Shown one piece after another: positions 7,889 through 58,818 of a DNA stretch of 64,000 nucleotides (its first letter is position 1; each line of letters opens with the position of its first letter). Source of the stretch: Eledone cirrhosa. Its lineage: Eukaryota. Below the pieces are notes generated by a model, which saw only the letters and a program-made list of their open reading frames with translations, was not told the DNA's origin and did not search any database. The stretch lies in assembly GCA_964016885.1 (NCBI GenBank), contig OZ024745.1, positions 40,486,001-40,550,000 on the forward strand, given 5' to 3'. The position numbers and the translations under genes are program-made.

Positions 7889-10800
7889 TTACAGACACAT
7901 ACTCAGAGAAGGCCCATTCATTCGGGCCATACTTGCTTCTCTCACCCATCTTTCAATAAAATGCTGGGAAGAGAGCACTTCCCTCTCTACCCTGATTTTC
8001 CTTTTCAAATGAAATTTGAAGAATTTAATCAGGACATCACCGAAGAGGTAAGTGCTCGTCTTCAGCCCTTTCAAACGTGTCCACCATACTATCTCTTTCG
8101 CCATGGCCACCATACTATCTCTTTCGCCATGGCCACCAGACAGATAAAAACTGCCTGCCCTTCCCGGCTAAAGGAAGAGGGCGGGGCATTCCTCACGATG
8201 GAGTCAGCTGATAGCTGGATCCGTCCTACACGTGACAGCAGGTGTTCGACATAAACCCACAAGTCAGCAATGCTCGGACACTGGACGAGTGCGTGCAGGA
8301 CGGTTTCGTCGCCCTGTGCGCATCTCGGACATGCCCGGCTGACGGCACCTCCATGCCTGTAAAGTTTATCCCGAACTGGCAAATCACCCCGGTAGCACTG
8401 CCAGGCCAGGGATTTCTGGAAGATGTCCATAGGCCCCGGCCCGAAAGTCCTTCCGAAGAGATTGGCTAGTTGATTTTCGTCGACGCCTAGAGTCTCTCCA
8501 AGTACGTCGTCACTCTTCCCCTCCACTAATCCCCTATAGAACGCCAAGGTGGAGTTTCCAGCGATCACATTGCCCGATTGGTCGAGGGCTGTGAGCGCCT
8601 GAAGACATTCCAGTCTCCAAGCGCTCCCTCTTGGTCTTCGCTTGACCCAGGACTGCAGCTCCGTCAAGGAGACGAGCTGGGGAAAAACGCGTCTAGCAAA
8701 CGGCGACCACACCTGATCACCGTCGAGGAAGAGGTGGAGATGTCGTAGCCTGAGCGTGTGTCTGCGCATCATCAGCCACGGCATGCCCAGCCCTCCACGT
8801 AGCGGGTGTTGACAGCAGATGGACCGCCTGACCATCGGAGCGCGTCCCTTCCACAAGAAGCGAAAGAGCAAACGCTCCAGCGCAGTCGGGCGGGGCTTAG
8901 GACAAGGTACGACGGTCAGGCGGTAGTAGATGACCGACGCGATGTACGCGTTAGCCACCTCTGCCCGACCTTTCAGGGATAGCTTCCTCTCAGCCCATTT
9001 CTGGGTGAGAGGAGCCACCCTGCTCGTCACCTCGTCCCAGTTTTTGTCCGTCTGGAGGTCTGGACCGAACCAGACCCCTAGCAATTTAACCGGTCAGTCC
9101 GTCCAGCGCCCGACGACGCTGTTGGATGGCATGGACCTGCCTCTCCAGTTGCCGAGCTGCAGGCCCACTGACTTTTCCTGGTTGATAATTGCTCCTGTCA
9201 CCGCTTCGTATTCTCTTAGTGTAGTGCCGATCGCCTCGATGTGTTTGGCGTTCGACACCACTACGGTGACATCGTCGGCATATGCTGACACGGATCTTCC
9301 GCATCCTAGTTCGCGCGGGACCCCCCTCAACGTCTCCAGTTTGTGCAGTAATGGCTCGAGAGTCAATTCGTACAATAGGGACGAGAGGGGACATCTTTGG
9401 CGGACCGAGCGCATGATGTTGAACGGTTCCGAAAGGTGACCGTTCACTCTCACTACAGAGCAGATGTCGCTGTGCATGGCAGCGATCCAGCCTCTGAAGA
9501 CGGGCCCAAAGCCAGCCGCCCTCAGGACTGCCGCTAGGTAACGATGGTCGACCCTAACGAAGGCTTTCGACTGATCTAAATTGATCAAAGACTCACCCGT
9601 GCCAGCTTCCCTAGCTACCCTCTCTACGATGTATCGCATGAGGTGGAGGTTGTCGTGGATGGATCTGTCTGGAATGGTGCATGTCTGCGCCTCTCCCACC
9701 AGACCACCAACGACAAGCGCCAACCTCTTTGCTAGCACCTTGGGCAAAATCTTGAACTCTGTGTTTAGCAGAGATATGGGCCTAAAATTATCTATGTTAT
9801 CCCCCTTGTTCGGATCCTTTCTCAGCAGCGCCACCGCTCCTCGGCTCACAGAGCTGGGAATTCTCCCGTTCTGTTGCCAGTTGCAGTAGACGTCCACCAA
9901 GAGGCCTCCGAACAAGTCTGGCATTTGTACGTAAAGTTCATAGGGCAGACCATCCAAACCAGGCGATTTACCCCTTGTGCAACTAGTCATTGCATCCCGT
10001 ACTTCAGCGGTTGTTATCGGCTTTTCGCAACACTCCGCCTCAGTGGCCGAAAGCCGCGGCAGTCCGTCGAGGTAGACACTAAAGTCTATCCCTCGATTCG
10101 GTAGGGCCACTGCCCCCGAACAGTTGAGCGAAGCGTTGCTGAAAAGCTTCACACATTTGCCCGGGATCGAGTAGCATGCGCCCGTCGTGGTCCACCAAAG
10201 ACCGGATCGTGGCTTTGTTGCCACGACGCGCCTCCGCCACTCGGGCCCATTGAACTGCTTTCGTGCCCTCGTGTCTGAGAGCACGCACCCTAGCTCTGAC
10301 AACGCAGCCTTCGTGCTTTGCATTGAAGTATTGGTCAAGGGCCAATTTCGCCGCAAGTACGTCGGTCGCGATGCCTTTGCTAAGCGCCTCATCTAATTTT
10401 CTAACTAGTTCTCCCTCTGCTCTATTTTTCTCTATTGCTAAAGTCTTACTAAACCTAATGGACTCTATTCTAATTGCTCTTTTCAGAGCAAACCACCACT
10501 TGTTGTTGACGATGGCCCCCGTCAACGCCCGCTTAACTAGTTCGCTAATCCGGTCTCTGTAGGCCTTGCGCGCTGGCAAGGACGCATTTAGCTTCCAGTA
10601 GCCGGGTCCTCGCCTATGAAGCCTATCTAAGTCAAGCACACAGATCACGTATTGGTGGTCCGTGTAGCTGACTATCTTGAATTGTGGACAGCCTATGCTA
10701 GACCTATCTATTTCCCTACAAAATACTCTATCTAGATATGATCTGGATGACCTCATGCGATTTGTCCAAGTCCACATTGGTACATTCGGGAAATCCATTC

Positions 10801-20720: not shown

Positions 20721-23700
20721 TATAGACTTATGAAAGAACTAATACCACAGAATTACACGCACAGACTAGTTATTGTGTAGTTCGAGTCGCTATGATGGAG
20801 CCGTCATATGACACATATGAAATCGCCTTAATCATTGGGTGATTCACAAATGTGTATTTCTAGTTGTGCCAGGTCTACGATAGTTACAAATAATATTGCA
20901 CATGAGTAACTACTTAATTATATTTCTCACTTGCAGCATGAGAGTAAAGTAAAGTTCCTGTATATGTGTAGCGAACGAGGATGCAGTACTGGAGCTTGCT
21001 TATTTTACCCAATAAATGTGAGTAGGCGTGCAAAGGAAAATCACTTTCATTTCCTGTATATAATTGGAAAGTGCGTCTGAATTAGTATTATATGTGAATA
21101 TACATAAACTAACTAATGTGTTATTACTGAATCATTTTTATAATGTATATATATTTATATATACATATCTTTATATATATATGTGTGTGTGTCTGAATGT
21201 AAGTGTTATTAGGTTCACGCTTTAGGTGAAAGAGAAAACATTTAAATATATTGGACAGTAGTCCTTCATAAAAAGAGTATAATAGTAGATAGATAAAAAA
21301 ATAAATGATAGATAAAAGGGGATATATGTATATTTTTTTAATGTTTTTGTTGCGTGTCTGTGTATATATTGGTGGAATGGTTTATACATTGTTCGTGCGT
21401 GGCTGCCTCTTGCGATATGAATCTCTCACTGAGATCATAAATCATGGCCTGAACAACGCAGGCTTCTATTCCCATGTGTAGACAGCGGGGCCGGACTGTG
21501 GCGTCGACAAAAGGCCAGATGTCTTGACTATCTTCTAATTCTGCGTGCAAATTACCCTAAATATTGTGACCCATTCTCTAGTGGCAGCTTTGTGCGTTCA
21601 GATGCCAGCCTGAATAAGGGAAACTGTGAAGATATCGGCCGCACTCTCAGGGTTGTGTTTGAGCCTGTAGCAGTGGAGATTTCTGGCATTCTTGGAATAT
21701 GGACCACATAGCTCATAGGAGGAAGGCTGAAATTTAAGATTTATTAATGGCGGTGGCATGTGGATTAGATTTACTTCCATTAGCATGATCAGTAAGAAAT
21801 AAAAAAAAAGAATTAATAGTCGCAGTCTTTCACTCCATTACTATATACATCTTTGAAATTAGTCATAAGTTGGATAATAAACCATACTTAGTTGAACGGG
21901 TTGAACCTGCTGACAGGTGTGTGTGTGAATGGGTGTGAGTGTACCTTTCAACGTGTTTGTTTATTAATATGTCAAATATATTTTGTTGTATGTGTAATGT
22001 ATCTAAGTGTATTTAAGTATATTTATATGGTGAAGCAATGTTTTATCTGAGTTGGTGTGTGCGTGAATACGAGACAATTAGATGGCGATGGGTGGTGCAT
22101 TTAGTCCATTGGGTGTTAGTATAGGAAACATAAACCTCTGTTACTCCTGGTGGTGCGGGTATTGGAGTCCGATGCAAGAGCGTACCCAAACACAGCAAGA
22201 TGGTATGTGGGATTACCGGCAGTAAGGAGATGTCGGTTTACCCACGACGAGTTGCCGATATGGATGTCACAAATCTCTAGGCCTGTTGATGGCCAGTGTC
22301 AGCATAGAATATTGCCTCGCATAGGGTGATCTGGAGCCCATAGACGAGAGTTGTAGAATGCCATCTGAAAGAGACTCTAAAATACTGCTGTTATGTCCGT
22401 TGAAGTTAGTGCTGTGGGTTATAAAGATGCATGCGGCCAAGTAGGTTCGGGTGGAGGGATCGGATACAGGCGAGTATTTGAAAGAAGTGAGGGAATCACC
22501 AGCGAGAAGTTTTCTTAATGTTTGTGTTTCAAACAGAGGACTGGTCGGAGAGGAAAATTAGTAGAGGTGGAGTGATCAGATTGAATGCAGATTAAAGATG
22601 GCTGATGTGATGAATGTACGTTTGTAGCGGTTGATAGAAATAGAGATATCAAGGAAGTTGGTGGAAATATTGGTGATAGAGGTGGTGATAAAGAGGTCAA
22701 AGACACAGATGGCGTAGTTGGTGGCAGAGTGGTCACCAGAGATTTAATGATGGAGTCCCGGAAAGCTGACACAAGATCGGTTGGACAATTTCATGGGTAG
22801 ACGATGGGTGACCCATGTGTATCTGGTTTTTTTAATTTTGGAGACGTTAGGGGGGGGGGTGCATACATTAAGTTTGGTGGTTGTGGGTGGTATATGGGAG
22901 GAGGTAATATGTTCGCGTAAAGTGGAGGAAACATGCTGGTATAGAGGAGTGGCGCCCAAAAAGCGAGAGGCGATAAAAGACTTTGTTGCGGAGCTACTGT
23001 AAGAGCTCAGTTTTGTAGAGTTCAAAGCGCCATACTATCACAGTATTCCATTTGTCAACTGGTTTGGTGACGATGACATCAGTTGTAGTATGGATTGATG
23101 GGCGGCGATTTTAGCACGGGAGATATTACTCCGTTCGAAGCGATGTCGAAATGCGAACAGAGACACGTACCGATGACAGCCTTCAATGAACGTGTCTATG
23201 AACAATTCATGACATAGACACGTTCCTTCATGTTTATTATCGAGTGGTGACTCAGTTCGAATTTCAGAAAAGCTTCCAACGGAGTAACATCTCCCGGGCT
23301 GAAATCAACGCCTCCACTCCCTCAGACAACGTGATGTCGTCGTAATGAAACGAGTCACACAAAATAAACACATAAACACGAAGAAAGTTGAAATATTGAG
23401 AAATGGAATTTCGGTGTCGCTGGATTGTTCATCATCACAACATCGTAACCGGATTTTTAAATCTAGTAGAACAAAGAAACTTGATAAAACATCTATTTTC
23501 CTTCCTATTTTAATTAAATTCTAAAGGAGGATGTTGATGTGTTTCATCAATGTTATTTTTATTCGTTTTAGCCATCTTGTCTTTTGTTATTTCTTTCTCT
23601 TTATTACACACTCCTAAAACTTCGGAATATACGGTTGGCTCTTATGTGTCTCGATATCTATTAACAAACTTGAAATTTCCATTAATCGACAGAGTAATGT

Positions 23701-29830: not shown

Positions 29831-30395
29831 GTTTGTCTTCACTATTCACATTCTGGTTATTTCTAGTTCTAGATCTTTTCTTGATTTCCTTGGTAGATAC
29901 ATTGTCGCTGTGAATAAAGAGGAATACGGATATGTGATGATCGATATCACTTGACCGTGTCATTCTAGAATGGCGGGGACAGCAATCACGTATAATAATA
30001 GAAAAATTACATAGTCTTAAATATAAATTACAGAGGATGTTGTATTTCCACAAATTATCCCAGTTGAAAGGAGAGTTCAATGAAGTGTGGCAAAATGTTT
30101 GTATTATTATAAAGGTATTTGATATACATCCAACTAAATATCGGTAGAACCAAAACGAAATACTGATAAAGTATGAGAAAAACTACTAATTAAAGCTCAA
30201 TTCCAGGGATGACGGGTTGGAGAACAGTCGATCACATCAGCTGTAGTATATGACTGGTAATATATTTATTCGATGAAAGATAACCTGCAGTAAATTTGAA
30301 CTTTGGATATACAGAAGCCGTATCACAAATCATTCGTCCAAAATTTCAAATGATTTGTCTTATAGGTGCAATGGATTACCAGAATCATTATAATA

Positions 30396-30768
30396 ATTGT
30401 TTCTACTTTTGGCACAAAGTCAGCAATTATCCCAGTGCGTTACTGGTGCTTTATTCTATCGACCCCGTAAAGACGAAAGGTAAAGGTAACCTCGGCGGGA
30501 TTTGAATTCAAGTCAAAAAGAGCCGTAACTCTGCAAAGCATGGCGTCCGACCCTCTACCATAACTGATAATCCAGCTAATCATTATAATAATTGTTTCTA
30601 ATTTTAGTACAAGGCCAGCAATTAACCAGTGCATTACTGGTACTTTATTTTATCGACCCCGTAAGGATGAAGGGCAAAGTTTACCTCGGCGGGATTCGAA
30701 ATCAGAATGGCAAGGGCCGTAACTCTATGCGTCAAAGCATGGCGTCCGACCCTCTACCGATACTGCCA
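30396..30768 (-). mobile_element. Two tandem OK/OR-like SINE copies
   Basis: Two successive matches to the window SINE consensus (~30396-30575 and ~30590-30768). Confidence 0.85.
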
Positions 30769-50350: not shown

Positions 50351-52155
50351 CTAATAAACCCGGCACGCACAGATATGGGTCTAGTCAGTAAGGCCATACT
50401 TAGAAACATAGTTAAGACCATTAGGACCAAGTCCAACCTGCCCCAGTGGGAGAACAACGACTCCGTAATTAAGTGGTTTAACTCCTTAAAATCCAAAAAA
50501 GCGAAGTTCACACAGTTTGACATTGTCGATTTTTACCCGTCGATCTCCGAGACCCTGTTAAATAAAGCGTTGGACTTTGCTACCACTTATACCACCGTCG
50601 ATGGTTAAGATAGGGAAATCATCGCTCACCGCCGGAAAACCCCCCTCTTCAACGACAGAGTAGCCTGGGCAAAGAAGTCTACAACTTCAGACCTATTCGA
50701 CGTCTCCATGGGATCGTTTGACAGTGCTGACGTATGTGACTTGGTTGGCCTATTTATCTGAAACATATTACGTGTTAGATTCCCGGACTTCCACACGGGA
50801 ATATACCGCGAAGATGCACTAACTTTATCGAGCCATAAAAGTGGTCACAACATCGACCTGTTTAAAAAAGACTTAGTTTCTACCTTCAATGAGTGAGGAC
50901 TTAGGATAACAGTAGCCACCAACCTCTCTAGCGTAGATTTCTTAGACATTAATTTATACCTTCGCACACACACCCACAGACCCTTCCATAATCTAAACAA
51001 TAAATTCAATAAACATTCACAAGGACTCATGCCACCCTCCCACTGTTTTTAGAAACTTCGTTAAGAATATCAGTACTAGAATCTCAAACCTCTCCTCTAA
51101 TAAGGCTATCTTTGACATGGTGGCACCCTACTACAACACGGCGTTGGCTAACAGCGGCTTCTCACAACCTATCACTTATTCTACCACTAGCAACAACACC
51201 ATTAAGAAAAGTAAGCGCAATATAGACAAAATATCTAGTCTCTCCGCCCTTCTCACTCAAAGTTAAAACCAATGTTTGAAAACAATTCCTAGCCCTCTAA
51301 GATAGACACTTTCCCATAGGTCATAAATACCGCTCCATCTTTAACCGACACAAAGTTAAACTATGATACTCCTGCGCTAAGAACATGAAGGCCCACATCA
51401 CCAGCAGCTCTAGGAGCAACACCTCACCAGAGTGCCCTTGCCGTAAGCGTGAAGCTTGCCCCCTTCAACAGCAATGCAACACGCCATCTGTAATTTATGA
51501 AGCTGTGGTAAATTCAAATCGACCAAACGAACCACAGGAGGTCAAATCATATGTGGACATGGCGGAGGGCCGATTTAAGGAACGTTTCCTGAACCACCAG
51601 CCTACCTTCAGGCACCCGGACAAACGTTCATCCACGAAACTCGCGAGCCACGTATAGTCACTCAAGCACTCAAGTATAGACTACTCCATTCAATGGAAAG
51701 CCATCACTAAGTCCAAGCCATACGCAGGGGGAAATCCTACGTGTGGCTTATGTATTGACGAACGAATAACTATTCTAAAGAGATTACGCTATAGTGATTG
51801 CCTAAACTAGAGAAATGAATTTTTCACGAGTTGTCCACCCGTCGCCAAACACCTATTGCATAACTACAAGGCTCCGGACTGATTCTTTGTCATTTTATTG
51901 TCAACCTAAATATTTTCGGACTTCGCACGCAATCTAGTATTGCCTGTGTAAGGTGACCGGGTTTCTGCGCATGCGCGTTCGTACGGTTGTCCTTCCTGTT
52001 CCTATAACCATGCCCATTCCGAGCTGAGTAACCGCTAAGGTGAGACAATTGTTCTCGGTATGGTGAACTAACTGTTGTGTAACCACTTCTACCTAACTCG
52101 TCCCATGGACTGAGTGTTCTACCACTACCCATATTACCTTCCAGTGTTCCACCAC
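50351..52155 (+). mobile_element. 5'-truncated, inactivated Penelope-like element (RT + GIY-YIG + pLTR), probably Naiad-type
   Basis: LINPARTDMG..SK..QW..VIKWF..FDIVDFYPSI, MGSFDSADVCDLVG, GIYRED, DFLD; CPC..CPL..C, VIY/YVD (GIY-YIG), CGLCIDE, LN.R.E..C; many stops and frameshifts; ends ccaccac|(TA)n. Confidence 0.88.
52019..52058 (+). ncRNA. Mutated type I hammerhead in the PLE pLTR
   Basis: ccgag CTGAGTA acc-gctaa-ggt GAGA caattg TT ctcgg; core substitutions relative to the copy at 58685. Confidence 0.7.
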
Positions 52156-52699: not shown

Positions 52700-54366
52700 C
52701 AGAAATATATATATTATATATAAGGGTTAAAATACTGGAGTGTGTTAGAGTTAAACACCCTCTTCGTATTATAGAAATGACAGTAAAAGGTATAGCTCAA
52801 TGTAGTTAAACAGAGCCGAAAAATAAGAGAGTAAAAGAAAGAAGCCTTCAATACATCAAAAGTCTTTATTAGCCGACAATGTTTCTCCCTATTAAGGACT
52901 CATCAAGGCAATTAAAACAACAAGAAGTAATATCGGCAGATACAAGCCGGAAGCTCCGAAGAATATGGAGTGTACATACACTGAAGTATTACAAAAATAT
53001 ATAATAAAAATATATGATAAAAATTACTAAGGATGTATATAACACTAAGAACCATATTACAAATATAGTCCAAAGCAAAAACTAGAGCTAAACAAAGGTG
53101 GTTATATAGAGCAGGAATTATATATAATACAATATCATATACTATAATATACCTTTACCAACATTAAAATTACAATAAAAATCAAAAGATACAATATGCA
53201 TATGCATATATGTGCGCACACGTACACACACATATACACATACAACAATACACACATCCATCCTCAACTGCACAAATTAAACCTTATTAAGAATTTGAAT
53301 ATAAAAATAAGCATGATAGGAATGAAAATAATAATAATAATAATAATAATACATCTACATGAGGTAATAATATGATATAATTATAAGTAGTACATAGGTA
53401 ATAATATGATATAATTATAAGTAGCACATATAATAATAAATAATACAATTATATACTATATAATACAATATAATAGAATATATAATCTCCGGTTAATTTA
53501 CACAAACAATATAGATGTCACAATAATAATATAATAATAATATTTACAATATACAATATACTAACATTCTAAATGTACTCGAGTTAACAAGTCAATCCAT
53601 ACTGGGTTACAGAGTAGGTGAGGAAAAATAAAATGTACAATACCTCAAAAAAATGTTGATGATACAGAAGTATGAACATCTTACAAGATATATAAGGTTT
53701 AACATATCATAATGTTACATATAATTAACGGTAAGTAATAAGGATCAATATTACAATAAAAAATACAATATAATATAATATATTATATAAAATAAAATTA
53801 ATACAATATAATATATAATTACTTATAATTACAAGGTTGGTAGACAGACATGTACATGGATGAGTGAGTAAGTGCCAGACAGTAAATATAATGCACAGTA
53901 GTATTACAAATAAAATATAATATATAAAAAATATAAAATATAGAATCAACCGGAAATTAAAAAACAAAAACAAACGTATACATTTAGGTCTCACATGCAG
54001 TTAAGTAGTTAAGTAAAAGCTAAGGAAACAACCCCTGTAAATGACTCGAAAACCCTATTTGATAATTTAATATTAAAGTATTGTTGTATGTGTATATGTG
54101 TGTGTACGTGTGCGCACATATATGCATACGCATATTGTATCTTTTGATTTTTATTGTAATTTTAATGTTGGTAAAGGTATATTATAGTATATTATATTGT
54201 ATTATATATAATTCCTGCTCTATATAACCACCTTTGTTTAGCTCTAGTTTTTGCTTTGGACTATATTTGTAATATGGTTCTTAGTGTTATATACATCCTT
54301 AGTAATTTTTATCATATATTTTTATTATATATTTTTAATACTTCAGTGTATGTACACTCCATATTC
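52700..54366 (-). mobile_element. PLE-like non-coding remnant with ~290-bp inverted arms
   Basis: 52961-53250 is the near-perfect reverse complement of 54078-54366; minus strand has a hammerhead remnant plus AATAAA at 52865-52909; no ORF recognised; left boundary approximate. Confidence 0.6.
52872..52909 (-). ncRNA. Degenerate minimal type I hammerhead
   Basis: gcc TTGATGA gtcc-ttaata-ggga GAAA cattg TC ggc, then taataaa. Confidence 0.6.
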
Positions 54367-54583
54367 AGTCATACGAAAGTGAGTTACAAACGAAACGAAA
54401 TTTAATTTCGTTTCGTTATTTGTTTTTATCGTCTCCGCTGAACCGGTGCGTACTCACACTCTATGCAAATTAGTCTGCCCACTACTAATTTTCATAGAAA
54501 AAGCATATAACGATAATTTTCATAGAAAAAGCATATAACGATATGAGCTTTTACAATTCTCCAGAAAGGCCGGTAGATAGATA

Positions 54584-54628
54584 AATATTGCTGATGAGTT
54601 GTAACAACAACGAAACTAGTTCAATGTT
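54584..54628 (+). ncRNA. Type I hammerhead ribozyme, copy 1 (predicted cleavage after 54621)
   Basis: aatattg CTGATGA gttgt-aaca-acaac GAAA ctag TT caatgtt: complete core, paired stems I and II, palindromic minimal stem III. Confidence 0.92.
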
Positions 54629-54958
54629 CCTTGTCTGGCTTTCTGAAGAATAGTGGGAAGGTGTTCCCCCGAAAAACCAGTATGACTCTAAAAACCGGTT
54701 TGTCTGTGTGTTTACATACAGAATAGCTGGGCCGCTCACTGTAAAGCGACCAGTGAAAGACTTGGTACACCTACATATGTATACGTGTGTGTATTCATAT
54801 ACACACTAGTATTTCAGTATGCATATGTAGATGTACATTTTTAACTTAATTGTTTAAGCGTCAGTCATACAAAAGTGAGTTACAAACGAAACGAAATTTA
54901 ATTTCGTTTCGTTATTTGTTTTTATCGTCTCCGCTGAACCGGTGCGTACTCACACTCT

Positions 54959-54966
54959 ATGCAAAT
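54959..54966 (+). promoter_or_regulatory. Octamer ATGCAAAT in each repeat unit (also 54463-54470 and 55427-55434)
   Basis: Exact octamer motif; function inferred only. Confidence 0.35.
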
Positions 54967-55051
54967 TAGTCTGCCCACTACTAATTTTCATAGAAAAAGC
55001 ATATAATGATATGTGCTTTTACAATTCTCCAGAAAGGCCGGTAGATAGGTA

Positions 55052-55096
55052 AATATTGCTGATGAGTTGTAACAACAACGAAACTAGTTCAATGTT
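55052..55096 (+). ncRNA. Type I hammerhead ribozyme, copy 2 (predicted cleavage after 55089)
   Basis: Identical core to copy 1, 468 nt downstream. Confidence 0.92.
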
Positions 55097-55519
55097 CCTT
55101 GTCTGGCTTTCTGGAGAATAGGGGGAAGGTGTTCCCTCGAAAAACCAGTATGACTCTAAAAACCGGTTTGTCTGTGTGTTTACATACAGAATAGCTGGGC
55201 CGCTCACTGTAAAGCGACCAGTGAAAGACTTGGTACACCTACATATGTATACGTGTGTGTATTCATATACACACTAGTATTTCAGTATGCATATGTAGAT
55301 GTACATTTTTAACTTAATTGTTTAAGCGTCAGTCATACAAAAGTGAGTTACAAACGAAACGAAATTTAATTTCGTTTCGTTATTTGTTTTTATCGTCTCC
55401 GCTGAACCGGTGCGTACTCACACTCTATGCAAATTAGTCTGCCCACTACTAATTTTCATAGAAAAAGCATATAATGATATGTGCTTTTACAATTCTCCAG
55501 AAAGGCCGGTAGATAGGTA

Positions 55520-55564
55520 AATATTGCTGATGAGTTGTAACAACAACGAAACTAGTTCAATGTT
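55520..55564 (+). ncRNA. Type I hammerhead ribozyme, copy 3 (predicted cleavage after 55557)
   Basis: Identical core to copies 1 and 2. Confidence 0.92.
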
Positions 55565-55854
55565 CCTTGTCTGGCTTTCTGGAGAATAGGGGGAAGGTGT
55601 TCCCCCGAAAAACCAGTATGACTCTAAAAACCGGTTTGTCTGTGTGTTTACATACAGAATAGCTGGGCCGCTCACTGTAAAGCGACCAGTGAAAGACTTG
55701 GTACACCTACATATGTATACGTGTGTGTATTCATATACACACTAGTATTTCAGTATGCATATGTAGATGTACATTTTTAACTTAATTGTTTAAGCGTCAG
55801 TCATACAAAAGTGAGTTACAAACGAAACGAAATTTAATTTCGTTTCGTTATTTG

Positions 55855-55859
<5 letters not shown>

Positions 55860-55892
<33 letters not shown>

Positions 55893-57658: not shown

Positions 57659-58094
<436 letters not shown>

Positions 58095-58818
58095 GTAGAA
58101 GTGGTTACGCAACAGTTAGTTCACCTTACCGACAACAATTGTTTCACCTTCGCGGAACTTCAGCTCGGGATATGTATAGTTATAGGAACAGGAAGGACAA
58201 CCGTACGAACGCGCATGGGCAGAAACTCGGTCACTTCACACAGGCAATACTAGACTGCGTGCGGGAGTTGTAAGGGAGATAACTGCGAAAGTCCGGACAT
58301 TTTTAGGTTGAAAATAAAATTTAAAAAAATTAAAAATAAAATTACAAAGAATCAGTCCGATGTGTGGCTTATGTATTGAAGAACGAATAACTATCCTAAA
58401 GAGATTACGCAATAGTAATTGCCTAAACACGAGAAGTGAATTTTTCACACGTTGTCCACACGTCACAAAATATCTATTGTATAACTACAAGGCTCCGGAC
58501 TGATTCTTTGTAATTTTATTTTAAATTGTTTTGTTTTTTTTCAACCTAAAAACTTTCCGGACTTTCGCAGTTATCTCCCTTACACCTCCCGCACGCAGTC
58601 TTGTATTGCCTGTGTGAAGTTACCGAGTTTCTGCGCATGCGCGTTCGTACGGTTGTCCTTCCTGTTCCTATAACCATACATATCCCGAGCTGAAGATCCG
58701 CGAAGGTGAAACAATTGTTCTCGGTATGGTGAACTAACTGTTGTGTAACCACTTCTACCTAACTCGTCCCTTGGACTGAGTGCACTACCACTACGGATAT
58801 TACCTTTTAGTGTTCCAC

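Follow-up and report, generated by a model that had tools for sequence, protein, structure and literature searches.

The window analysed here (the whole 64,000-nucleotide stretch of the Eledone cirrhosa genome, within a 3.0 Gb assembly) contains, at 54365..55861 on the + strand, a short tandem array whose unit was predicted to fold into a branched, hammerhead-bearing RNA. The question that this locus raises is whether such a fold has been selected as RNA and, if so, how the element that carries it moves. In our reading, which we consider probable, the array belongs to a high-copy family of non-LTR retrozymes in which the + strand fold is selected and a likely circular RNA is copied by a Neptune-type RT, via rolling-circle TPRT, into (AT)n. 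The array consists of monomer positions 240-468, two full monomers and positions 1-304, with a period of 468 and 99% identity between units. The full monomer at 55090..55557 (+) runs from one predicted cut to the next, 55090 being the first base past the predicted cleavage site. It is non-coding (the longest ATG-started frame has 20 codons) and low in G+C (176 of 468 nt, GC <50%), and it is devoid of LTR structure, its ends being (AT)n junctions. At 55861 in the window, which is monomer position 304, the 'long' end abuts an (AT)n target tract (55859..55885). The leftmost unit contains a 28-nt duplication (54486-54543, +) and departs from units 2 and 3 at clustered sites over 54486-54669, several of these differences being private to the window insertion.

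Each of the three units contains one type I hammerhead on the + strand, at 54573..54644, 55041..55112 and 55509..55580, with predicted cuts at 54621/54622, 55089/55090 and 55557/55558, respectively. The second copy has its core at 55059, a stem I of 7 bp plus an extension, a stem II of 5 bp, a U at position 17 and a palindromic helix III (55083-55088). All three matched the Rfam model HH9 with E values of 1.3-2.3e-6 (2.3e-6 for 55041..55112) and 35 bits, below the gathering score of 52. At the gathering threshold the whole window gave no Rfam match; miRNA and other low-score Rfam matches in the window were disregarded as hairpin look-alikes. The core motif and the HH9 matches were found on the + strand only. 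Of 425 copies sampled, 413 had an intact catalytic core, position 17 was occupied by U in 312, C in 119 and G in 2, and the subfamilies differ by a U-A/A-U swap (a double transversion) in stem II.

A precursor with two hammerheads (55023-55590), folded as a linear molecule, had a double hammerhead as its MFE structure, in which stem I joins both monomer ends and adjacent units pair with each other over 6 bp through their palindromic helix III halves. Helix III had a probability of about 0.42 between units and 0.0 within a unit, and the double hammerhead beat the fold with two local stems by only 0.5 kcal/mol. According to the available text of PMC4209133, metazoan type I hammerheads whose helix III is short and palindromic use such a dimeric mode. 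An earlier note on this DNA had proposed that stem I brings the monomer ends together; it does close them, and the same pairing is the predicted double-hammerhead conformation of the precursor. Self-cleavage of the transcript at the hammerhead is predicted from the fold.

Genome-wide, the pattern of the hammerhead core matched exactly at 9,503 places (0 for the reversed control), and a pattern for subfamilies other than that of the window has 7,828. Monomers are 461-470 nt long, tandem repeat periods are 466-470 and the subfamilies are 87-100% alike. We fetched 144 insertions, 143 of them with usable segments; the sample is non-random (about 45 were selected for their similarity to the copy in the window, and the others were taken successively along contig C1) and represents a small part of at least 2,294. 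Arrays reach about 30 seamless head-to-tail units with no body between them, and the median is about 2 monomers (72 loci chosen by the long end). This is a new and very abundant family of non-LTR retrozymes. It resembles the metazoan non-LTR retrozymes of coral, mussel and axolotl (available text of PMC7229834) in being tandem, non-coding and low in GC with a type I hammerhead in each unit, in having a self-paired predicted circle that leaves the ribozyme free to form and in coexisting with Penelope-like elements, and it shares with axolotl HHR_Amex1/2 the short palindromic helix III. Its unit, at 468 nt, exceeds the 170-400 nt circles and the 150-450 bp repeats of that source, a length within the 51-972 bp given in the accessible part of 10.64898/2026.07.22.740005. 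At one locus an unrelated 277-bp element is inserted within a retrozyme unit (L013:2072-2349). Other hammerhead-like cores with a different stem II occur at five sites of contig C1 (G000:C1:47159378, 68823820, 69807374, 73953620 and 136130241) and probably belong to further Penelope-like or retrozyme families.

The earlier note described the monomer as tiled almost entirely by hairpins in a viroid-like fold. Every helix that it listed was found in 55090-55557, and the ten helices as written have 99 canonical pairs out of 100 (95 Watson-Crick and 4 G-U, with one C-U mismatch). The hairpin said to be perfect in unit 3 is so, with a C at 55605 where 55137 has a T, while one given as 14 bp with a 1-nt loop is present but folds as 13 bp with a 3-nt loop. 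The circular MFE of 55090-55557, -159.8 kcal/mol, compares with -99.9±5.4 for 100 dinucleotide shuffles (z -11.1; best shuffle -113.8), a stable self-paired fold as in retrozymes, and the reverse complement is less stable (-137.1 vs -93.4±6.7, z -6.5). The coverage, on the other hand, had been overstated: the listed helices span 198 of 468 nt (42%), and the paired fraction of the full MFE is unremarkable, 66% vs 61±3% in 30 shuffles (maximum 68%). The 10 hairpin loops compare with 8.9±1.5 in shuffles. The unusual feature of the fold is the length of its helices and not the paired share, 45% of the nucleotides lying in runs of at least 7 bp vs 27±6% (maximum 41%; 30 shuffles). The ends are closed by a helix in which the 5' arm of the long stem I (55090..55119, +) pairs with 55491-55526.

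Energy alone is insufficient to establish selection on RNA, because the reverse strand and an unrelated palindrome also score low. Out of 16 other 468-nt segments of the window, 15 had z values between -3.5 and +1.7 and one reached -10.7; a single such palindrome already deprives a low z of diagnostic value by itself. The sequence concerned (23058-23355) is an imperfect palindrome with 72% arms and a folding z of about -10.7, possibly a MITE or foldback element. The hairpins of the retrozyme might likewise be DNA palindromes (foldback, MITE-like or AT/GT microsatellite-like by-products) and not selected RNA structure, as the stability of the reverse strand far above shuffles, the palindrome at 23058-23355 and one long (AT/GT)-rich hairpin would suggest. 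We hold this to be very unlikely, given the strand-specific constraint and the compensatory changes described below (the stem II double transversion among them), the intact single-strand core of the ribozyme, the lack of terminal inverted repeats and the RT-type 5' truncation.

In a compensation test with 12 representative monomers, the structure being derived from the same alignment, 98.5% of cells were paired vs 32-49% with slid partners, and 6 of 152 pairs showed compensatory (two-sided) change, including the stem II U-A/A-U swap. The compensatory pair count alone was not above the column shuffle (102/500), the events being few and related. Compensatory pairs lie in the end-closing helix (alignment columns 20/426 and 24/422) and in the 7-bp hairpin at 55121..55138 (+), which has two (G-C/A-U, columns 33/48 and 36/45). 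Two tests were carried out with structures not derived from the alignment. With the helices of the earlier note, the pair was kept by 17 of 29 shared variants (those in 3 or more of the 143 insertions) vs 58 of 205 single-unit changes (p 0.002); with the single-sequence MFE it was kept by 26 of 43 vs 85 of 287 (p 1e-4). The remaining 17 of these 43 shared variants break an MFE pair; two pair-breaking shared changes amount to a register shift in the stem I extension. At monomer 110-131 two hairpins compete. Across the first 57 insertions, 32 of the 310 paired positions were variable, compared with 34 of the 158 that are unpaired (p 0.002).

The constraint is also biased to one strand. The 25 substitutions that separate one insertion (L056) from the window copy give a + strand energy of -160.0 vs -133.1±7.9 when they are relocated at random (0/60 as low), whereas on the - strand the values are -124.1 and -117.9±7.2 (12/60). 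For the 54 substitutions of L085, from the most distant subfamily, both strands beat the null (z -4.8 on the + and -3.5 on the -). With DNA folding parameters the two strands are nearly equal (-84.9/-82.1). The claim that most imperfections are G-U pairs on the + strand was right in direction, although the number of sites behind it is small: in the + fold 11 pairs are G-U and the 1x1 mismatches number just two (C-A and C-U), while the - fold, too, has 8 G-U. The G-U:A-C ratio was 17:11 in shared variants vs 62:88 in single-unit changes (p 0.065) and 20:8 by tree-based event counts (p 0.004), which cover the 130 insertions (of 143) where 380 or more positions were called and are secondary since the tree is rich in homoplasy. 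Part of the G-U excess may stem from A-to-G changes on RNA and not from selection alone. Taken together, the compensatory pairs, the pair-preserving shared variants and the strand-biased null test support selection on the branched + strand RNA fold, as the earlier note had proposed, and are evidence at the population level that selection acts on the whole fold and not on the ribozyme alone.

The best-conserved part of the monomer, positions 216-304 plus 336-403 (8 variable positions of 157 vs 58 of 311 elsewhere, in segments picked after seeing the data), is the end region and not the ribozyme. The first segment (55305..55393, +) contains both fixed insertion ends and a 13-bp hairpin between them; the fixed end at 230-235 lies in a small hairpin loop, and 304 lies at the end of a 12-nt unpaired U-rich linker. 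We infer that it is the RT start region. The second (55425..55492, +) has two conserved hairpins with 3 of 68 positions variable and is possibly a protein-binding region. Hammerhead viroids (the branched Avsunviroidae such as PLMVd) are likewise small, non-coding, branched self-paired RNAs processed by double hammerheads. The term viroid-like stands as an analogy only, the element being a genomic non-LTR retrozyme: viroids have ribozymes in both polarities and replicate from RNA to RNA with no DNA stage, whereas the retrozyme has its hammerhead on the + strand only, exists as thousands of DNA copies and would spread via reverse transcription.

What the earlier note overlooked is the anatomy of the insertions, which is of the Penelope type. 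Two outward, head-to-head arms were found in 97 of 140 loci, an arrangement that corresponds to an inverted 5'-truncated copy. In 57 insertions there are 98 outward ends, of which 49 map to monomer positions 299-306 and 41 to 228-237, leaving 8 at other places. The two fixed ends are about 70 nt apart, and 33 of 41 two-ended insertions have one long and one short end, that is, a tail. (AT)n adjoins 82 of 90 ends, a target bias like the (TA)n preference of Neptune and Naiad. Exact long-end junctions number 2,294 in the genome (control, 2), and in the 72 loci picked by their long end the second end was short in 46 of 50. An inverted truncated copy, a tail and (TA)n bias are features of Penelope-like elements in the accessible text of 10.1101/2021.04.23.441226. 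For PAc, of the anole, the available part of PMC11167929 explains the tail by two internal RT start sites, with both strands cut and extended. These insertion ends suggest mobilisation by a Penelope-like enzyme. The likeness to Neptune and canonical EN+ Penelope-like elements extends, as far as these texts go, to the inverted 5'-truncated copy, the one-end tail, the two internal ends, the (TA)n bias and a hammerhead in the terminal unit. In contrast to them, the retrozyme has no ORF, a tail of about 70 nt instead of 30-40 bp, seamless multi-unit arrays instead of partial tandems and a hammerhead of canonical and not minimal size.

In the window the retrozyme array is the right part of a composite insertion. 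Its left arm (52722..54078, -) is the 3' UTR/pLTR of an autonomous Neptune-type family, here called B, and ends in a short (AT) tract; it includes the minimal hammerhead of this family (52872..52911, -), the core of which is mutated in the window copy. Between the two lies an inverted fragment of B (B828-1118; 54078..54366, +) that overlaps the retrozyme by 2 nt (54365-54366). Upstream in other copies of family B is a frame of some 700 aa, in which RT motifs are accompanied by a cysteine linker and a GIY-YIG domain. The RT motifs of these ORFs we take as support for the Neptune clade name. The assignment also draws partly on the CxC..CxxxxxC linker as described in the available text of 10.1101/2021.04.23.441226. 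Pfam gave only sub-threshold GIY-YIG matches for the Neptune-type ORFs, and the ESM Atlas placed them in unnamed animal RT/HTH clusters. Family B has 3,643 candidate places in the genome, including a full-length copy with a frame break (L046:2567-7990), and most of the first 100 of 1,820 matches to the minimal hammerhead belong to it.

The end anatomy of family B, with two fixed ends (B1255-1258 and B1357), is similar to that of the retrozyme, and pieces of Neptune-type ORFs lie within 5 kb of many arrays. One could conclude that the arrays are merely 5'-truncated pLTRs of an autonomous Penelope-like element and no element in their own right. The sampled loci largely refute this idea, to which we leave a small probability. 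An ORF with RT and GIY-YIG between terminal repeats was found neither in the unit nor, as a shared body, in the 140 loci; 97 of these consist of two outward arms of the unit only, and the 43 one-arm loci have nothing in common upstream apart from (AT)n and short remnants of the unit in inverted orientation. The long head-to-tail arrays, with nothing between their non-coding units, also contradict it. Comparison of the monomer with five Neptune-type stretches gave no homology, only microsatellite-like matches. At their short ends, the retrozyme and family B have a 7-mer in common, which is to be expected where ends are AT-rich.

A second chimera (L193:1700-4695) has three parts in head-to-head arrangement, with (AT)n on either outer side: an arm of the retrozyme is linked, through about 145 nt of RT sequence resembling that of LINEs, to an element of another Neptune-type family. 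The LINE piece is presumably RTE-like. Chimeras with Neptune-type elements thus amount to 2 of 143 insertions (the window copy and L193), and since the two involve different Neptune families the partner is a candidate only. They fit template switching by a Neptune-type RT, although a deletion fusing neighbouring insertions is possible. A query with the B junction revealed no second B chimera among the best 40 of 2,077 candidates.

The nature of the template can be approached through the 5' ends and the mutations of the arms. The 5' ends (n=233 arms) are spread evenly round the monomer, and the pile-up at the cleavage site that would mark cleaved linear templates is absent (5 of 233 arms near the cut, vs 4 expected), which excludes cleaved linear monomers as the usual template. 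We detected 39 insertion-wide private variants, each fixed in every covered unit of a single insertion and almost never seen outside it. Both arms carry the change for 24 of these, which come from 19 of the 143 insertions. In one insertion all 18 units share three private changes, and its 14 full units are without differences. A circle is the simplest template for even ends and array-wide variants, judging from the sequences.

Retaining the same family and a Penelope-type enzyme, the template might instead be a linear, uncleaved multimer, the fold serving protein binding and the choice of RT start, and the long arrays growing later in DNA. The even spread of 5' ends fits this equally well, and so do the array-wide variants, because a homogeneous parent array would also transmit them. 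It is further favoured by the conservation of the end region above the ribozyme, by PAc, whose main substrate is unprocessed RNA and for which hammerhead cleavage is dispensable in vitro (available text of PMC11167929), and by the cleavage of only 1 of 9 Xenopus dimers (accessible part of 10.64898/2026.07.22.740005). A linear copy, however, never exceeds its parent, yet arrays of 18-30 seamless units occur where most insertions have about 2; the private changes in all units of both arms imply a one-monomer bottleneck before insertion; and the hammerhead core and stems are conserved with covariation. We consider the linear multimer rather unlikely.

With the circle as the preferred template, the cycle might proceed as follows. 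A tandem array would be transcribed, and in the transcript the long stem I would align the monomer ends while neighbouring helix III halves meet, so that a double hammerhead excises the monomer; the fold is predicted and the activity would follow from it. Among the 6 sequencing runs listed, none that contains the sequence is recorded as RNA; two look like DNA, one of them covering the unique flank at a depth of about 2. The juxtaposed ends would be ligated, probably by a host RtcB-type ligase as in other animal retrozymes. A Penelope-type protein would then nick (AT)n on both strands, and cDNA would start at monomer 304 and 230-235; the fixed ends are observed, and the nicking and priming are modelled on PAc. 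The cDNA could run any number of turns round the putative circle, and two cDNAs would join head to head. Lastly, only variants that keep the fold would found new insertions, a step for which the evidence is statistical.

The mutations themselves have a further pattern. Read in the sense of the RNA strand, single-unit changes comprise 100 G-to-A vs 55 C-to-T (p 0.002) in arms of both orientations; in the 143 insertions the G-to-A changes are mostly outside CpG. RT error or deamination of cDNA may possibly account for the bias, with assembly error as an alternative. Changes of A to G make up 13 of 39 insertion-wide variants vs 47 of 474 single-unit changes (p 1.6e-4), and clusters of A-to-G only (3, 3 and 2 changes) occur in all units of three insertions. 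Counted per insertion, A-to-G and T-to-C are 8 vs 6 (not significant), and per site 13 vs 6 (p 0.07). Clusters across all units, mostly in stems, were seen in L099/L100/L116 (monomer 338, 342 and 343), L179 and L097. The A-to-G clusters are possibly the product of A-to-I editing of the RNA template. Tentatively, and as a reading less likely than not, these observations might be combined into a genomic record of the full life cycle of an animal circular RNA: a double hammerhead would cut out the monomer, a Neptune-type enzyme would copy the circle by rolling circle from two starts into both arms, and host A-to-I edits in the stems would be written into DNA and filtered for a G-U-tolerant fold.

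Self-paired circles of retrozymes are already known, so that the fold alone is modest news. In the available text of PMC7229834, repeats of 150-450 bp are reported to give highly self-paired circRNAs of about 170-400 nt, dimers are cleaved efficiently and RtcB circularises the RNA far better than self-ligation does. Target-site duplications are mentioned there; arms in inverted orientation, a tail, targeting of (AT)n, covariation and traces of rolling-circle copying are not. The family matters for the question of how retrozymes of animals are mobilised and of whether their circle serves as the template. In the accessible part of 10.64898/2026.07.22.740005, animal retrozymes are regarded as non-autonomous Penelope-like elements on the basis of co-occurrence and of pLTR homology across 35 genomes, most of them from vertebrates, local DNA amplification is favoured for the tandems and the ends are outside the analysis. 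We arrive at the same mobilising class on a different basis, namely insertion anatomy, chimeras and array-wide private mutations, the five Neptune stretches compared here having no pLTR homology. An octopus repeat annotation (PMC13282606) has 0 occurrences of ribozyme or retrozyme, and our literature search, within accessible text, returned no paper on the present family, nor any that treats retrozymes with regard to inverted arms, tails or RNA editing. The added value lies in the Penelope-type anatomy together with the signs of rolling-circle copying, for which the literature searched, as far as accessible, contained no earlier description. The family comes with a target, RT start sites that are defined, thousands of young copies and, from two chimeras, candidate partners of the Neptune type, and its mutation pattern fits rolling-circle copying of one RNA, a hypothesis that can be taken to a reconstitution experiment as done for PAc.

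Two further repeats were noticed in the window. At 58092-58761, inverted arms of 248 nt (89%) stand beside extended tracts of (TA)n, and 51924-52095 is another, partial copy; this may be a further family with inverted anatomy that targets (AT)n. At 30383-30758 there are two copies of a 194-bp repeat, which may resemble octopus SINEs.
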